Source: Bacillota bacterium (lineage in GTDB: Bacteria; Bacillota; Sulfobacillia; Sulfobacillales; Sulfobacillaceae). From it: a stretch of DNA of 64,000 bases. The position numbers and the translations under genes were made by a program. How positions within the stretch are numbered: position 1 is the first letter of the stretch; every line of letters begins with the position of its first letter. The DNA is taken from the NCBI GenBank assembly GCA_021799435.1, contig JAJZAN010000003.1:15253-79252 (forward strand), given 5' to 3'. Positions 15,242 to 42,097 of the stretch are shown here, piece by piece. The notes below the pieces were generated by a model, which saw nothing but the letters and a program-made list of their open reading frames with translations, was not told where the DNA came from and ran no database searches.

Positions 15242-15257
15242 GCGACGCGCGAGAGTC

Positions 15258-32922: not shown

Positions 32923-33345
32923 TTAGTCTTCGAGATTTTCGAGGCCCTTGGTGAAGCGGCCGGCGTGGCTCTTCTCAGCCCGAGCCAAGGTTTCGAACCA
33001 CTCCGCAATTTCGTCGAATCCTTCGTCGCGAGCGGTCTTGGCAAACCCGGGATACATCTGCGTGTACTCGTATGTTTCGCCTTCGATGGCGCTCTTCAAA
33101 TTCTCCTCGGTCGTTCCCACCGGAACCCCCGTCACCGGGTCTCCCACTTCTTCCAAGAACTCAAAGTGTCCGAATGCGTGTCCGGTCTCCCCTTCCGCTA
33201 CGTCGCGGAATAATCCGGCCACCTCCGGACGGCCTTCCACGTCCGCCTTTTGAGCGAAGTACAGGTAGCGCCGGTTCGCCTGGGATTCCCCAGCGAACGC
33301 CTCTTTGAGGTTTTCGTGCGTCTTCGAGTTAAGCAGTTTAGCCAT
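32923..33345 (-). CDS. rbr: rubrerythrin-family di-iron protein (no rubredoxin domain)
   Basis: [20 protein letters not shown]...[10 protein letters not shown]...[10 protein letters not shown]..., typical ExxH four-helix-bundle ligands. Confidence 0.9.
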
Positions 33346-33468: not shown

Positions 33469-34152
33469 CTAGCGAGAGCGTTTGCGCGCGGTGCGGCGCG
33501 CTTGGCGGTTCGGCGGCGTCGCAGGAGTCATTGCCTTCTCCTCCGGCTCCACCGCGAGACCGTTCGATTCCGGCATCAGCAGGACAGACTTCTTGTGCCC
33601 GAGACGGACTTGCTTAGCCCAATAAATGCGAATGTCCGGAAAATCCCACCAAAAGTGCACATCCTCTCCCACCCGATCTGCGTGAAACAGGTAGTCCAAG
33701 GGTTGCCGCAAATAGACAAACCCGAAACCAGCCATCCCCACTTCTGAATATGGGGCCATCTCCTCCAGTTCCGCTGGCGTGTAGTGATACGCCTTATCCG
33801 GTTCGCGGGACCGCATCAGGACCGGGACACCATTGCCCATCATGTAATTGGCGGCAATGCACCGTTCGTGAGTTTCTGCCCAAGTCAGCGCCTCCACAAT
33901 GGTGCGGTAACTGTCGGGCGGAATCAAAATGTCGGAATCCACCCACAGGACCCAGGGCCTCTCCGGAGGCGCGACATACTTGCGGATGCGCTCGACAACC
34001 ATATTTCGACATCGGGGGATATTCGACGCTTCTGTGGTCACCACCATGACCGATCGCCCCATTTCCCGACCGACCTGCATGAGCTCCAATAGAGTTTGCA
34101 CCACGGCACGCGAATCGTGTGTGGGTATGGCAATAATCAATGTCTCTGACAT
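33469..34152 (-). CDS. small GT-A-like glycosyltransferase with basic C-terminal tail
   Basis: N-terminal beta-alpha start LIIAIPTHDS, DxD-like LWVDSDILIP, no signal peptide or TM, C-terminal PPNRQARRTARKRSR. AAGGGCGG RBS. Confidence 0.6.
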   Translation of the reverse strand: MSETLIIAIPTHDSRAVVQTLLELMQVGREMGRSVMVVTTEASNIPRCRNMVVERIRKYVAPPERPWVLWVDSDILIPPDSYRTIVEALTWAETHERCIAANYMMGNGVPVLMRSREPDKAYHYTPAELEEMAPYSEVGMAGFGFVYLRQPLDYLFHADRVGEDVHFWWDFPDIRIYWAKQVRLGHKKSVLLMPESNGLAVEPEEKAMTPATPPNRQARRTARKRSR

Positions 34153-34224
34153 GGCAGCCGCCCTTTATACGTTGAATTGCAACCGCAGCCCGCTTGAGTC
34201 CGCGGGACCGGCGGCGCGATGCCA

Positions 34225-34233
34225 TATGGTATG
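34225..34233 (-). promoter_or_regulatory. sigmaE/sigmaK-like -10 element upstream of the glycosyltransferase gene
   Basis: Minus strand CATACCATA (CATAnnnTA), 73 nt upstream of the ATG and downstream of the copy A terminator. The upstream AC is at a non-ideal N18 spacing. Confidence 0.25.
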
Positions 34234-34273
34234 TGATCCACCCCCAACGGGGTACAGGAACCCGTCCAGGCGC

Positions 34274-34309
34274 AAAAAAATCCTCCCGTGTAGAACAGGC
34301 GGGAGGATT
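34274..34309 (-). terminator. rho-independent terminator after Cys/Thr-rich paralog A
   Basis: Minus strand ATCCTCCCG-N11-CGGGAGGAT followed by TTTTTTTG. Confidence 0.85.
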
Positions 34310-34315
34310 TGGGTG

Positions 34316-34879
34316 TTAGAGGGGCGTGGTGCCACTCTGTGGCGGAAACAGCGCACTGGGCGGACACGGCAGAACCGGTCCCACTTGACCGCAGGCCGGG
34401 GGCGTGCAGAACCCGTACGTTGGCACCAAAATCTGAACAGTGGCCGTGGTCTGGAACAAAACACACAACGTAATGGTACAGCTGATGGTGTCGTTGGGCA
34501 GGTTTACGCACGTGCAGGTCCCCGACACAATGGTGCAGGACGGCGTTGTCCCCATAGGATTGTAGAGCGTCACGGTTGCGGTGGTGTAAGCCGTCGACGT
34601 CATGCTCTTGCCATCCGCGCAGGTCACCGTGTATTGGGCGCCAATGACGAACGTGATGTTGCTGTAGTCAGTCGTTGTCGCGGCGGTAATGGACCCGACC
34701 GTGCAATCCGTAGACGAGGAGGTAAGATCAACGGCGCAGCTGGTCACCGCGCACTCTTTACACCAAACGTCATCGGTCAACGACTGCGTCATTGTGACGG
34801 TCTGAATGCAGGAGTCATACACCTTGTCGACGGTAATACAGTCAATTCCCGTGGGCTTTGGGCAAATGCTTTCGTCCAA
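34316..34879 (-). CDS. Cys/Thr-rich protein, paralog A (187 aa; 16 Cys, 38 Thr), no signal peptide; family unknown
   Basis: Aligns end to end with the 36634-37194 product. I prefer TTG 34879, which has a GAAAGGAAG RBS about 10 nt upstream. The same GAAAGGA-N9-TTG arrangement occurs in paralog B. The ORF-track GTG 34888 sits only 1 nt after the RBS. Confidence 0.8.
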   Translation of the reverse strand: MDESICPKPTGIDCITVDKVYDSCIQTVTMTQSLTDDVWCKECAVTSCAVDLTSSSTDCTVGSITAATTTDYSNITFVIGAQYTVTCADGKSMTSTAYTTATVTLYNPMGTTPSCTIVSGTCTCVNLPNDTISCTITLCVLFQTTATVQILVPTYGFCTPPACGQVGPVLPCPPSALFPPQSGTTPL

Positions 34880-34925
34880 CGCGTTCACTTCCTTTCTAGG
34901 AAAGCCTCATAGCGGCCTCTCACGG

Positions 34926-34955
34926 TATAATATGGAGCCTGATCCAAAAGGTTCC
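34926..34955 (-). promoter_or_regulatory. sigmaK-like (mother-cell) promoter motif of paralog A
   Basis: Minus strand GGAACCTTTTGG-atcaggctc-CATATTATA, which equals AC-N16-CATAnnnTA. The 12-mer and the -10 are shared with paralog B. Confidence 0.5.
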
Positions 34956-34983
34956 ATGGCGATTCCGTTGTCCCGCCACAAAC

Positions 34984-35006
34984 AAAGCCGCCCCAAGGGC
35001 GGCTTT
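34984..35006 (-). terminator. hairpin terminator after the 35041-35619 ORF
   Basis: AAAGCCGCCC-caa-GGGCGGCTTT. On the minus strand it is followed by GTTTGTGG, and on the plus strand by TGAG. Confidence 0.6.
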
Positions 35007-35040
35007 TGAGATATCCGTGCACCACGGATTAGCGCTGGTG

Positions 35041-35619
35041 TCAGCCTCGCCGTGGTGCGGACTGCGGAGGACGGATCCGCGAAATGGCTCCCCCAGAGGT
35101 GGAGCCACGCACCATGCTCTGCGATTGATGCACCACAACCACCCCTTTGGCGGCTGCCGCCGGCCGCGGCTGCACGCGGGCGGGCTTGGCTTTCGCAACC
35201 GGGGTGCTCGGTTTGTTCCGCACAATTTCCACCCCCTCCCATCGCTCCCGTTCAGGGTGTCGCGTGGCAGCCCACAAAAAAAGCCCCCAGGCCCATCCCG
35301 CCAGAAGCCGATTGACCTCCTCTTCATCGCCCACAGGCACGGTCGCCTCTACCACATCCCGATCCCAGCTGACCGGGGCGCGCACCAAGGTCACGCCTGC
35401 GGCTTGGGCCATGAGCTGTCCTGCCCGCCGTGCCGGCCAGCGGCTCGTCGACGCAATGGTAATCCGGCTCCCTTCCCCTTGAACGACTCGGACCGCCAAT
35501 TCTGCCATATCGCGAGGACGGGCAAGATCCCAAGGAGCCAACGCCCGCAGGAATCGCTCCCGCAGCGTTGGCTCCAAGTCGGTTATGACATAGATCCCAA
35601 AAAGTTCCACGGCTATCAC
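35041..35619 (-). CDS. hypothetical protein (orphan; start uncertain)
   Basis: Codon usage looks coding but there is no RBS before GTG 35619. The segment RITIASTSRWPARRAGQLMAQAAGVTLV weakly recalls the C-terminal half of DUF218/YdcF. The C-terminal tail is low-complexity and basic. Confidence 0.35.
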   Translation of the reverse strand: MIAVELFGIYVITDLEPTLRERFLRALAPWDLARPRDMAELAVRVVQGEGSRITIASTSRWPARRAGQLMAQAAGVTLVRAPVSWDRDVVEATVPVGDEEEVNRLLAGWAWGLFLWAATRHPERERWEGVEIVRNKPSTPVAKAKPARVQPRPAAAAKGVVVVHQSQSMVRGSTSGGAISRIRPPQSAPRRG

Positions 35620-35652
35620 CCGGGATACTTTATGTGGAAATACTGGAAAAGG

Positions 35653-36420
35653 TTACGAATTCGGCCCGATAAAGAGTTCCGAAATCGCCACGCCTGATCC
35701 CCACGGTGCCACTCCGACACCAATTTGCGTCTCATAGGGGTTCAAGATGTTGGACCGGTGCGGCGGCGAGGCCATCAGCATCGCAAACGCTTGGCTCACG
35801 GACCCTGCCTCGGCGATGTTCTCGGCACCCATGCCTTGGGCTTGAATCCCAGCCGCCTGTTCCATCTGGACCGGCCAACCATACCCGGCCATGTCGCTGG
35901 TGAAGGGTCCGTTCGCCAAGGTCACAGCGCGCTCCTGAGCAAGCTGCATCAGGGTGGGGTTAATGGTGTAGGGCTTGAGACCGGCCTGTTGCCGGGCTTG
36001 ATTGATGAGGTTAATCATTTGCATGGCGCTGTTGCTGGCAGTTGTCGTGGAGCCGGACGTTGCCGCGCTCCCCGATCCAGAACCGGTGCTGCCAGTAGAT
36101 GGTGCAGAGCTGCTGGAGCTCGACGACCCTGAAGGCGCACTGGGCGTCACCGTAGGCGGTGCAGACGGCGGCGGCGGTTGTGGTGTCGGCTGCGGCGCCG
36201 GTTGAGGTGCCGGCTGGGATACCGTCACCGTACCACTGGAAGCACCCTGATTGACCAAGGCGATGGTCTGGTAAACCTGATTTACCGTGGCAACGGGCAA
36301 ACGTGCTGCGGTTTGAATAGACGGGGCTGACGGGACGGGGGTGATGGCAGCGGGGGCCGCTCCCATCGTCACCGGCAGGCCAGCGGCGACGAGCAGGGCT
36401 GTGAAATAATTCATGCGCAT
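35653..36420 (-). CDS. secreted CAP/SCP (YkwD-like) domain protein with Pro/Ser-rich linker
   Basis: Signal peptide MRMNYFTALLVAAGLPVTMGAAPA, linker PAPQPAPQPTPQPPPPSAPP...SSSSSSS, and CAP core MINLINQARQQAGL...MLMASPPHRSNILNP. GGAGGA RBS. Confidence 0.8.
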   Translation of the reverse strand: MRMNYFTALLVAAGLPVTMGAAPAAITPVPSAPSIQTAARLPVATVNQVYQTIALVNQGASSGTVTVSQPAPQPAPQPTPQPPPPSAPPTVTPSAPSGSSSSSSSAPSTGSTGSGSGSAATSGSTTTASNSAMQMINLINQARQQAGLKPYTINPTLMQLAQERAVTLANGPFTSDMAGYGWPVQMEQAAGIQAQGMGAENIAEAGSVSQAFAMLMASPPHRSNILNPYETQIGVGVAPWGSGVAISELFIGPNS

Positions 36421-36588
36421 ATCCTCCGTTCGAACTCAATTTTAGGTAATTCTCAACCTAGCCTACCGGAGCCCATACCCCGCGGCAATCAAAGGAAACC
36501 CTCGTCTCACCGCTTGAGACCGGGTTACCCGTGCCACCCGGCAAAATACGGCGTCTAAAGGACTATTTGGATTGAATACCACAAGTTG

Positions 36589-36618
36589 GAAAGCCCTCCC
36601 ATGGCTGGGAGGGCTTTC
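36589..36618 (-). terminator. 12-bp hairpin after Cys/Thr-rich paralog B (weak U-tract)
   Basis: Minus strand GAAAGCCCTCCC-agccat-GGGAGGGCTTTC, then CAACTTGTGG. Confidence 0.55.
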
Positions 36619-36633
36619 TCGGACCAGACCCGA

Positions 36634-37194
36634 TCAGCTTCCGGCTTGCGGCGGGAACAGCGAGCTGGGTGGGCACGGCAACACGGGACCGACTTGCCCG
36701 CAGGCAGGCGGGACACAGAACCCGTAGGTGGGAATCAGCAGCTGCACGGTCGCCGTGGTTTGGAACAACACACACAAAGTCAACGTGCAGGTAATGTCGC
36801 CGTTGGGCAGATTCACGCACATACAGGTACCTGAGACAATGGTGCAAGACGGCGTGGTTCCTGCGGGATTGTACAGCGTGACGGTCGCAGTCGTGTAAGC
36901 CGTAGAAGTAATCATCGCGCCGGACGAGCACGCCAGCGTGTATTCCGCACCAATGATAAACGTGATATCGCTGTAATCAGTGGTGGTAGAGGGTACAATG
37001 GGCCCCGGAGTGCACGTCGACGCAGTCAGATCAAACGTGCAGCTGGTGACGGTGCAGTCATCCGCGGGAGTCGTCTTGGTCGTGGTGATAGTCTGGATAC
37101 AGGAGTCATACACCTTGTCGACCACGATGCAATCGATTTCAGTAGGAGTCGGCAGAGCAGCGTCTGGGTAGGAGCCGGGAGTCACAGTTGCCAA
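36634..37194 (-). CDS. Cys/Thr-rich protein, paralog B (186 aa; 14 Cys), no signal peptide; family unknown
   Basis: I prefer TTG 37194, with GAAAGGA 9 nt upstream. The ORF-track start 37326 would run through the promoter motif into the upstream gene. The C-terminal ~90 aa are nearly identical to paralog A. Confidence 0.8.
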   Translation of the reverse strand: MATVTPGSYPDAALPTPTEIDCIVVDKVYDSCIQTITTTKTTPADDCTVTSCTFDLTASTCTPGPIVPSTTTDYSDITFIIGAEYTLACSSGAMITSTAYTTATVTLYNPAGTTPSCTIVSGTCMCVNLPNGDITCTLTLCVLFQTTATVQLLIPTYGFCVPPACGQVGPVLPCPPSSLFPPQAGS

Positions 37195-37247
37195 GGTTGC
37201 ACATCCTTTCAGCAGAGATCCGTGATGAATAAGGCGCTCATCATTAG

Positions 37248-37277
37248 TACGATATGGATCGCATGCCAAAAGGTTCC
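37248..37277 (-). promoter_or_regulatory. sigmaK-like (mother-cell) promoter motif of paralog B
   Basis: Minus strand GGAACCTTTTGG-catgcgatc-CATATCGTA (AC-N16-CATAnnnTA), in the 100-nt gap after the amidohydrolase stop. Confidence 0.5.
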
Positions 37278-40942: not shown

Positions 40943-42097
40943 TCACGATTGGAAGCGGTCCCAATGCCGGGGAACCCGAGCACTGATGCTGGTCAACATC
41001 TCATAGCTGATGGTGTCTGCCCAGTCCGCCAGTTCTTCCATAGTAACTTCCGCCGCCCCGTCCCGGCCCGCCAGCACCACCACATCGCCTGGCTGGACGG
41101 CGAGGCCCTCCGGAACCCGCACGGTCAGCTGGTCCATGGAGATTCGACCGACTACCGGGCAGCGGCGTCCATGAATGAGAACTTCGGCCCGATTGGACAA
41201 CGCCCGTCGGTAACCGTCCGCATATCCGACCGCGACCGTAGCAATCGTCTCGTCCGCTCCAGCCCGGTAGGTATGGTGATACCCAATCGCAAACCCATGT
41301 GTCACCCGCTTTACTTGCGTCACGCGACTAACCCATGTCAGCGCAGGCGTCAAAGCTGGCGCGCCTGCATAAGGAACGGCTCCGTACAGCCCTAGGCCCA
41401 CGCGCACCATCGTGAAGTGAGTCCCCGGAAAGCGCAGGGTGGCAGCGGTATTGGCCAAGTGGATGTCGGGAGGCAATGCCGTCTGGGAAGCGCGGATGGC
41501 TTCAATCACCTCCAGAAACTGACTGAGCTGCTGACGCGTGGGCAGCGTGTCAGGTACGTCGCTGCATGCGAGATGCGACATGAGTCCCTGCCATTTCACC
41601 AGGGGGTGGTTGACGATCCGAGGGACCCAAATCTGCAATGCCTCCGCGGGTGTCACTCCTAGTCGCCCCATGCCGGTATCCACTTTCAGGTGAACCCGCA
41701 CCCGCCGGCCCAGCCGCTCGGCCGCACGCACCAGTGCTTCCCACCATGCGTCGTGGAACACCGTCACATCGAGATTCATTTCGAGGGCTGCTTCCGCTTC
41801 GCCGGCATTGACCGCTCCCAGCACAAGAATGGGGGCATCGATGCCGCCGTCGCGGAGCGCCCGGCCCTCCAGCACGGTCGCCACGCCTAAAGCGCCCGCG
41901 CCTGCCTCCAGCGCTGCCCGGGCCACCCGAAGCGCGCCGTGTCCGTATCCGTCAGCCTTCACCACCGCCATCACCTTGACCTGTGATCCCACCACGTCGC
42001 GAAAGAGACGGGTATTTGCGCGGACAGCTTCCGGATCGATCCACACCTCGGTGCCACGCTTGTCCTCCATCATGATGTCAGCCCTCTCTCTTGCCAT
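40943..42097 (-). CDS. alr: alanine racemase
   Basis: MAVVKADGYGHG (PLP lysine), ...VGYADGY... and ISMDQLTV. The start may instead be the ATG pair at 42073/42070. Confidence 0.93.
   Translation of the reverse strand: MARERADIMMEDKRGTEVWIDPEAVRANTRLFRDVVGSQVKVMAVVKADGYGHGALRVARAALEAGAGALGVATVLEGRALRDGGIDAPILVLGAVNAGEAEAALEMNLDVTVFHDAWWEALVRAAERLGRRVRVHLKVDTGMGRLGVTPAEALQIWVPRIVNHPLVKWQGLMSHLACSDVPDTLPTRQQLSQFLEVIEAIRASQTALPPDIHLANTAATLRFPGTHFTMVRVGLGLYGAVPYAGAPALTPALTWVSRVTQVKRVTHGFAIGYHHTYRAGADETIATVAVGYADGYRRALSNRAEVLIHGRRCPVVGRISMDQLTVRVPEGLAVQPGDVVVLAGRDGAAEVTMEELADWADTISYEMLTSISARVPRHWDRFQS

Follow-up and report, generated by a model that had tools for sequence, protein, structure and literature searches.

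Two paralogous genes on the minus strand of the 64,000-nucleotide (nt) stretch of Sulfobacillaceae DNA analyzed here (positions 15,253 to 79,252 of contig JAJZAN010000003.1, assembly GCA_021799435.1; hereafter the window) encode cysteine-rich proteins that we assign, by sequence comparison, to the BMQ_0737 superfamily of spore coat proteins, in which they form a divergent branch of single-domain members and are not equivalogs of BMQ_0737 itself. Each gene is preceded by a sigma-K-type promoter. In the explanation that we favor, with a probability of roughly 70%, sigma-K would drive synthesis of both proteins in the mother cell, their beta cores would self-assemble on the spore surface, and the cysteines of the core and of a conserved C-terminal tail would lock this assembly through disulfide bonds.

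Two paralogous genes and their family assignment

Copy A (34316..34879, minus strand) encodes 187 amino acids (aa), among which are 16 Cys, 38 Thr, and 4 Lys plus Arg residues, and copy B (36634..37194, minus strand) encodes 186 aa with 14 Cys, 38 Thr, and 2 Lys plus Arg residues. The original prediction, which was made from the letters of the window alone, had described these two open reading frames (ORFs), their Cys and Thr counts, and their end-to-end alignment accurately, together with the motif IDCI(T/V)VDKVYDSCIQT at the N terminus of both copies and the near identity of their C-terminal halves. When compared by BLASTP, the two proteins were 71% identical over 182 residues (E value, 8e-86). 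The same prediction had read an excess of third-position differences as the mark of an old duplication kept under purifying selection, and the codon comparison bore this out. Over 178 aligned codons, the 154 differences were distributed 38/23/93 across the three codon positions, and the nonsynonymous (dN) and synonymous (dS) divergences were 0.19 and 1.41, respectively, the latter being saturated, which gave a dN/dS ratio of 0.14. The C-terminal half was the more constrained of the two, with a proportion of nonsynonymous differences (pN) between the copies of 0.09 versus 0.24 for the N-terminal half.

Both genes begin with TTG, as had been proposed, and the ribosome-binding site GAAAGGA, read from the sequence, is present 10 nt 5' of this codon in copy A (34890..34896, minus strand) and 9 nt 5' of it in copy B (37204..37210, minus strand). 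Public assemblies contain identical gene calls for the 187- and 186-aa products, and copy B aligns to its orthologues starting at residue 2; the TTG starts are thus supported by the spacing of GAAAGGA, the public gene calls, and the N-terminal alignment of copy B. By simple hydropathy, neither copy had a hydrophobic N-terminal region, and the sole stretch that exceeded the threshold for a transmembrane (TM) segment falls within a confidently predicted beta-strand, which is consistent with the earlier statement that both proteins lack a signal peptide and a TM segment. Long antisense ORFs cross both genes (for example, 33929-34912, plus strand, 327 aa). They have no family support and are the usual by-product of a G+C content of 60%.

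The original prediction could name no family for the two proteins and proposed that they were new. This part of it did not hold. Both proteins matched NF052457, the NCBIfam "BMQ_0737 family morphogenetic spore coat protein" model (equivalog level, 199 positions, curated cutoff of 71 bits), with 23.5 bits (E value, 5.1e-5) for copy A and 18.7 bits for copy B. A word-indexed search of 5.8 billion proteins returned only 33 close clusters, all of approximately 186 aa, unnamed, and from Sulfobacillus-type metagenome-assembled genomes (MAGs); in public listings, the window proteins themselves are found only as unnamed or "hypothetical protein" entries. When the aligned close sequences were examined individually, 31 of 34 matched NF052457 (best E value, 3.8e-10). 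A hidden Markov model search with the family profile against 1.84 billion cluster representatives recovered 253 clusters at an E value of ≤0.001, 126 of them at ≤1e-10, so that the superfamily comprises 253 clusters at 50% identity. NF052457 was matched by 65 of 99 single-domain relatives (best E value, 9.2e-21), and ten intermediates scoring from 33 to 64.5 bits spanned positions 1 to 198 of the 199 in the model. A search seeded with these intermediates retrieved bona fide NF052457 members at 76 to 149 bits, including WP_100330283.1 of Bacillus xiapuensis, which is named by NCBI as a BMQ_0737 family protein; several Bacillales proteins of approximately 380 aa scored between 100 and 149 bits on the model. 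The profile of the window family also matched one bona fide member (P0180, 113.9 bits on NF052457) directly, at an E value of 1.9e-8. Finally, HHalign aligned the window family with the BMQ_0737 clade at a probability of 98.7% (E value, 4.3e-16; 183 columns), and this match ran across the entire window protein and the N-terminal approximately 230 residues of the longer BMQ_0737-clade proteins. In both alignments, N-terminal CI.V.KVYD.C and C-terminal FC.P...CP..FPPQ are invariant or nearly so. Taken together, the intermediates, the direct match to P0180, and the HHalign score place the window proteins in the BMQ_0737 superfamily.

The likeness to the BMQ_0737 family thus consists of a homologous domain of approximately 190 aa, the shared N-terminal CI.V.KVYD.C and C-terminal (V/K)(Q/L)L.V...FC.P...CP..FPPQ elements, the lack of a signal peptide, and an occurrence in spore-formers only. 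The characterized member of the family, from Bacillus megaterium QM B1551, is found in the outermost spore layers. When fused to green fluorescent protein (GFP), BMQ_0737 was located by ellipsoid localization microscopy with CotX1 and CotX2, outside CotE, and the strong binding of anti-GFP antibody by the fusion implies that it is exposed at the surface (PMC4656864). BMQ_0737 is cited in that paper as being needed for the integrity of the outermost spore layers (PMC4656864, citing PMID 24974944). The two groups differ in composition, since the window family contains 8.3% Cys compared to 4.2% in the BMQ_0737 clade and adds to this 17% Thr and almost no Lys or Arg, and in distribution, with window-type proteins in Sulfobacillia and Clostridia and BMQ_0737 in Bacillales. 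They also differ in architecture: the window proteins end at FPPQ, whereas the named Bacillales member and its close relatives (P0222 and P0212-P0219) have a two-domain organization of approximately 380 aa. Because P0209, a single-domain protein of 209 aa, passes the NF052457 cutoff at 76.2 bits, the two-domain architecture is not strictly defining. Low-G+C relatives such as P0173, P0153, and P0145, which had been guessed to belong to the BMQ_0737 clade, gave no match to NF052457.

Pfam searches returned only DUF6923, at chance level, for the two window proteins at an E value of ≤10, and no family for the 99 relatives at ≤0.001. DUF3992 (PF13157), DUF4183 (PF13799), and PF10612 were absent at an E value of ≤10 from all members of alignment A2, which contains 99 family members, the two window proteins and 97 others. 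At this level of comparison, membership in the Ena, F-ENA, and CotY/CotZ families is excluded, and the original prediction had been right to claim no homology to Ena or CotY/ExsY: neither Ena/DUF3992 nor CotY/CotZ/ExsY was matched by the window proteins or their relatives. CotY, CotZ, and ExsY of the Bacillus crust and exosporium basal layer are also small, Cys-rich proteins whose synthesis in the mother cell is under late sporulation control; they commonly occur as paralogue pairs and self-assemble to disulfide-stabilized arrays (bioRxiv 10.64898/2026.09.03.749163). However, they have no detectable sequence similarity to the window proteins, and the resemblance is functional only. A further group of Cys-rich, beta-rich lattice proteins of the Clostridia spore envelope includes CsxA, CsxC, CdeC, and the CsA and CsB proteins of C. 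sordellii; CsxA, CsxC, CdeC, CotE, and SipL have been grouped as having the SPOCS/DUF3794 fold (bioRxiv 10.64898/2026.09.03.749163). The window proteins differ from SPOCS proteins and CotE in having no match to PF12673 or PF10628. Within A2, the only weak spore-related Pfam matches were to CotE (PF10628; E value, 0.0024) and SipL/SPOCS (PF12673; E value, 0.048), in one member each, and these hint at an extremely distant relationship to the fold class of CsxA, CsxC, and CdeC. Comparisons with one B. subtilis CotE sequence by phmmer and HHalign were negative.

Sigma-K-type promoters upstream of both genes

The regions 5' of the two genes were examined for the sigma-K promoter pattern, defined as AC at -35, a spacer of 16 to 17 nt, and CATA---TA at -10, a consensus that was taken from distant species. 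In both B. subtilis and C. difficile, sigma-K promoters are recognized by an AC at -35 together with CATA at -10, whereas sigma-E promoters carry ATA at -35 (PMC3789822; PMC517825). A sigma-K-type promoter was found for copy A at 34926..34955 (minus strand), where GGAACCTTTTGG-N8-CCATATTATA provides AC at -35, a 16-nt spacer, and CATATTATA at -10, and for copy B at 37248..37277 (minus strand), where the sequence is GGAACCTTTTGG-N8-CCATATCGTA. In both strands of the window, AC-N16-CATAnnnTA had exactly two matches, compared to 0.24 expected. These two consensus sites (34926-34952 and 37248-37274) lie 47 and 54 nt 5' of the copy A and copy B starts, with the -10 element of copy A ending 47 nt 5' of its start codon. 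The extended box GGAACCTTTTGG-N8-CCATAT..TA is common to both genes and was found nowhere else in the window. A sigma-70 promoter scan of the region gave nothing above chance.

The pattern was also present at homologous loci. The strict form, AC-N16-CATAnnnTA, occurred in 19 of 79 of these, compared to 0.012 expected per window, and the core AC-N16/17-CATA was found upstream of 28 of 30 close homologues and 29 of 49 distant ones, compared to approximately 6% of random windows, at a consistent distance from the start codons. This suggests that transcription of both copies would depend on sigma-K in vivo.

Copy A is followed by an intrinsic terminator (34272..34310, minus strand) that consists of an 11-bp G+C-rich stem and U7, was also recovered by a terminator scan, and has a folding energy of -17.3 kcal/mol (z = -4.5). 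Directly 3' of the copy B stop codon is a 13-bp stem-loop without a U-run (36589..36618, minus strand; -30.4 kcal/mol, z = -3.5), which is probably a terminator or attenuator. Because a strong stem-loop follows each gene, each copy is likely to form its own transcription unit.

Predicted fold and cysteine pairing

The beta-rich fold that had been suggested from strings of alternating residues agreed with the AlphaFold2 model, which was built from a 34-sequence alignment and is all-beta, with a mean predicted local distance difference test (pLDDT) score of 87 and a predicted template modeling (pTM) score of 0.72. The model contains seven long strands over residues 11-154, two of which are 23-24 residues long. 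The conserved Pro/Cys tail, residues 156-187, was modeled with low confidence and may be an element that becomes ordered only in the assembly. Foldseek searches with the model yielded no match at an E value of ≤0.001 in either the PDB or the viral BFVD library, and TM-scores were ≤0.25. Searches of PDB sequences with the single protein and with the 99-sequence profile returned nothing below an E value of 0.28.

In the family alignment, nine Cys residues are invariant (positions 14, 24, 59, 115, 122, 139, 158, 163, and 172), as is the C-terminal motif Y-G-F-C-x-P-x-x-C...P...C-P-P...P-x-Q, which appears in the two copies as the shared Pro/Cys-rich tail PTYGFCxPPxCxxVGPVLPCPPSxLFPPQ. Among 162 nonredundant members, Cys columns covaried in the pairs C14-C158 (phi, 0.73), C139-C172 (0.64), C59-C115 (0.59), and C124-C134 (0.54), and a further pair covaried at the N terminus (0.70). 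In the hairpin predicted for residues 112-126/132-154, C124 and C134 would lie opposite each other. No partner could be identified for the near-invariant C24, C122, and C163. The gain and loss of Cys residues in pairs fits defined disulfide partners and not a metal cluster. The usual N terminus of the family is PGPCPxxGCPPPTE, with two Cys residues. Copy B, whose N terminus is PGSYPDAALPTPTE, has lost both of them, and the shortened N terminus of copy A (MDESICPKPTG) has kept one, which suggests that the roles of the N-terminal Cys pair may have been relaxed or divided after duplication.

Cys amounts to 7-8% of residues in single-domain members across the superfamily. The Thr richness to which the original prediction had drawn attention was present in both copies, but it is not a trait of the family as a whole, since 17% Thr and approximately 1% Lys plus Arg are specific to the Sulfobacillus-type clade and Thr is 8.8% elsewhere. 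High Thr with scarce Lys and Arg would represent an acid adaptation of an exposed surface.

The pairing of Cys columns bears on whether the proteins have any role in the spore. They could instead be a cytoplasmic Cys-rich metal or redox buffer of a metal-exposed acidophile, with the promoter motif a coincidence, as their high Cys content, their lack of an export signal, the metal-rich acidic habitats of Sulfobacillus-like organisms, and a rubrerythrin gene close by might suggest. However, the Cys columns covary as defined pairs and not as clusters, the predicted fold is a large beta-sheet and not metallothionein-like, and the family is present across neutrophilic anaerobic spore-formers. In addition, the proteins are homologous to a spore coat family, and the sigma-K motif occurs in front of homologues at 10 to 15 times its background frequency. 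We therefore consider a buffer of this type to be very improbable. Metallothionein-like or bacteriocin readings were ruled out by the fold, the distribution, and the Cys pairing.

A different spore-surface role is raised by the conserved, poorly modeled, Cys-bearing termini around the beta core, which recall the N-terminal connector of Ena. The two proteins could be subunits of a spore appendage, a pilus-like fiber comparable to Ena and F-ENA, in which the paralogues would copolymerize and the Cys-rich termini would act as covalent connectors. Ena and F-ENA are likewise small proteins of the spore surface, of a beta-sandwich type and lacking signal peptides; Ena has Cys-bearing terminal connectors, and paralogous subunits coassemble. 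The presence of a paralogue pair, the late mother-cell-type promoters, and the widespread occurrence of fiber systems on Firmicute spores (PMC12357932) are all compatible with such a role. Conversely, none of the 99 members has similarity to DUF3992 or DUF4183 at an E value of ≤10, no similar fold was retrieved from the PDB, the window family is larger, at 187 aa compared to 96-126 aa, and most genomes carry a single copy. The sole characterized relative, BMQ_0737, acts as a layer component needed for outer-layer integrity, as cited in PMC4656864. On balance, an appendage subunit appears unlikely.

Distribution, gene neighborhood, and proposed role

A scan of one genome per GTDB species yielded 292 loci, and taxonomy and synteny were taken from the best 80. 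The best 80 were all Bacillota except for three MAG contigs with implausible labels, and they included Sulfobacillus thermotolerans, S. benefaciens, S. acidophilus, three Moorella/Neomoorella species, Peptococcaceae, Desulfovirgula, Thermanaeromonas, Natronincola, and Metaclostridioides. The homologue of S. thermotolerans Kr1 falls within 1,032,646-1,049,161 of CP019454.1. The family is confined almost exclusively to spore-forming Bacillota. Four records (L028, L037, L050, and P0164) are labeled as Actinomycetes, Chitinophagales, or "Mycobacterium leprae"; their sequences and neighbors look like those of Bacillota, and they are probably misbinned or mislabeled.

Between the two copies is a gene for a CAP-domain, YkwD-like protein (35653..36420, minus strand) with an N-terminal signal peptide and a long Pro/Ser/Thr-rich linker. 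Its product matched Pfam CAP at an E value of 4e-14 and TIGR02909 (spore_YkwD) at 2.6e-21, the latter below the cutoff, and it appears to resemble the YkwD family, which is restricted to endospore-formers. Of the 80 loci, 45 had a CAP gene in the fetched flank of the family gene; these span distant Bacillota, among them Sulfobacillus, Peptococcaceae, Natronincola, and further Clostridia.

The domain also occurs in larger proteins of 490-1016 aa (P0036, P0109, P0131, P0143, P0159, P0160, and P0183), where it is C-terminal to Vgb-lyase, NHL, SBBP, or YVTN beta-propellers, DUF11 repeats, Ig-like domains, or beta-helices. No signal-peptide-like N terminus was found among these multidomain relatives. 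A comparable order of passenger, DUF11, and terminal domain is present in the exosporium anchor F-Anchor-3 of Clostridium aceticum, which consists of passenger domains, DUF11 spacers, and a lattice-protein-like domain, and whose CsxA-like domain is proposed to insert in the CsxA exosporium lattice (PMC12357932). CsxA-like domains are proposed as lattice anchors of DUF11 fusions, and the propeller-DUF11-domain fusions of this family are a parallel case. Because the design of the fusions matches that of F-Anchor-3, the domain may be a module for assembly or anchoring within a spore layer, and by this analogy the fusion relatives look like spore-surface display or anchor proteins.

The tight and broadly conserved pairing with the CAP gene could also mean that the family proteins are specific to sporulation without being structural, and that they guide assembly or maturation as a morphogenetic adaptor or in partnership with the secreted CAP protein. 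In the SPOCS class, Cys-poor organizers do exist beside Cys-rich building blocks (bioRxiv 10.64898/2026.09.03.749163). However, the 7-8% Cys conserved in single-domain members and the use of the domain as a terminal module on passenger fusions are both more easily reconciled with a component of a lattice or anchor than with an adaptor that acts transiently. Furthermore, only the CAP protein carries a signal peptide, so that it would be separated from the family proteins by compartment, except where the two come together on the spore. A purely nonstructural role is, in our judgment, improbable.

In the structural explanation that we favor, copies A and B would be paralogous single-domain members of the BMQ_0737 superfamily, each transcribed by the late mother-cell sigma factor sigma-K. 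They would be synthesized in the mother-cell cytoplasm, which would account for their lack of a signal peptide, and deposited onto the outer surface of the developing spore, that is, the outer coat, crust, or exosporium. Self-assembly of the elongated beta-sheet core would take place at this site, and the conserved Cys residues of the core and of the Pro/Cys tail would lock the assembly by disulfides. Both copies have been retained under purifying selection, possibly as coassembling partners. The original prediction had already read the proteins as Cys-rich, mother-cell-made components of the spore surface, and the BMQ_0737 homology, the sigma-K-type promoters, the linkage to the CAP gene, and the restriction to endospore-formers lend support to it. 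The functional assignment is supported by four independent computational lines, from which we infer spore localization, self-assembly, disulfide cross-linking, and a structural role.

Several points weigh against this explanation. Both window proteins fall far short of the 71-bit equivalog threshold of NF052457, their identity in the HHalign match with the BMQ_0737 clade is 22%, so that function is transferred over a large distance, and the BMQ_0737 clade has an extra C-terminal domain of approximately 150 aa that is absent from the window proteins. The sigma-K assignment was made with a consensus derived from distantly related species, the -10 element is common to sigma-E and sigma-K promoters, and two of the close loci (L028 and L029) lack the promoter motif. 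With regard to the mode of assembly, Foldseek found nothing in the PDB at an E value of ≤0.001, with all TM-scores <0.2, and Cys covariation does not separate intramolecular from intermolecular disulfides.

The history of the duplication was apparent from the tree and from gene order. Most genomes in the locus comparison carry a single copy. In these, the family gene is followed by the CAP gene, and the encoded protein is nearer to copy B, which is itself followed by the CAP gene. A neighbor-joining tree dated the duplication to the common ancestor of the window organism and the MAG HSP2.bin29 (L001), after the split from Sulfobacillus proper. By tree and synteny, copy B is the ancestral-type gene and copy A the derived, faster-evolving paralogue. 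The full order of amidohydrolase, copy B, CAP, 189-aa gene, copy A, 227-aa gene, and rubrerythrin was found only in these same two genomes; tandem or multiple paralogues are present at other loci too, such as L033, L044, L048, and L064.

The remaining genes of the cluster are less informative. The 189-aa gene (35041..35610, minus strand), between the CAP gene and copy A, gave no Pfam, NCBIfam, or PDB match and was weakly conserved beside the CAP gene at six loci by tblastn (L001, L012, L014-L016, and L029); whether it belongs to the unit is uncertain. Downstream of copy A is a 227-aa gene (33469-34152, minus strand) with no Pfam, NCBIfam, or PDB relatives. Both genes are conserved in the closest genomes only. 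From its beta-alpha-beta N terminus and a DSD motif, the 227-aa protein had been considered as a GT-A glycosyltransferase for a Thr-rich surface protein, and this was dropped; Pfam, NCBIfam, and the PDB gave it no support, and its single-sequence AlphaFold2 model was unusable (pLDDT, 38). A rubrerythrin gene (32923-33345, minus strand) and an alanine racemase gene (40943-42097, minus strand) are near the cluster. Homologues of both are exosporium associated in C. difficile, B. anthracis, and Moorella (PMC8745062); those in the window may simply be housekeeping genes.

To our knowledge, spore-surface components are known in few model Bacilli and Clostridia, these components diverge fast, and most spore-formers are without identifiable outer-layer proteins. 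A broader and considerably more tentative proposal concerns lineages without CotY/ExsY, CdeC/CdeM, and BclA, for which Sulfobacillus, Moorella, and Peptococcaceae are candidates: there, the superfamily would supply the missing basal-layer protein that forms the lattice of the exosporium or outer coat. Its fold would then be either one without a solved relative or a very divergent Cys-rich SPOCS offshoot, and the domain would also act more generally as an anchor by which beta-propeller and DUF11 passengers are displayed on spores. The exosporium of Moorella thermoacetica is large and its composition unknown, and this species has none of the known exosporium morphogenetic proteins (PMC8745062).

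The analysis connects widespread Cys-rich proteins listed as "hypothetical" with the BMQ_0737 coat family, with conserved sigma-K-type promoters, and with a conserved YkwD-like neighbor. It supports a superfamily-level model for annotation, which Pfam currently does not have, and suggests that the domain could serve as an anchor for spore-surface display. For Sulfobacillia and many Clostridia, the family is a concrete candidate for a building block of the outer spore layers, and its Sulfobacillus-type clade may illustrate how an exposed protein lattice adapts to pH 2 and high temperature.

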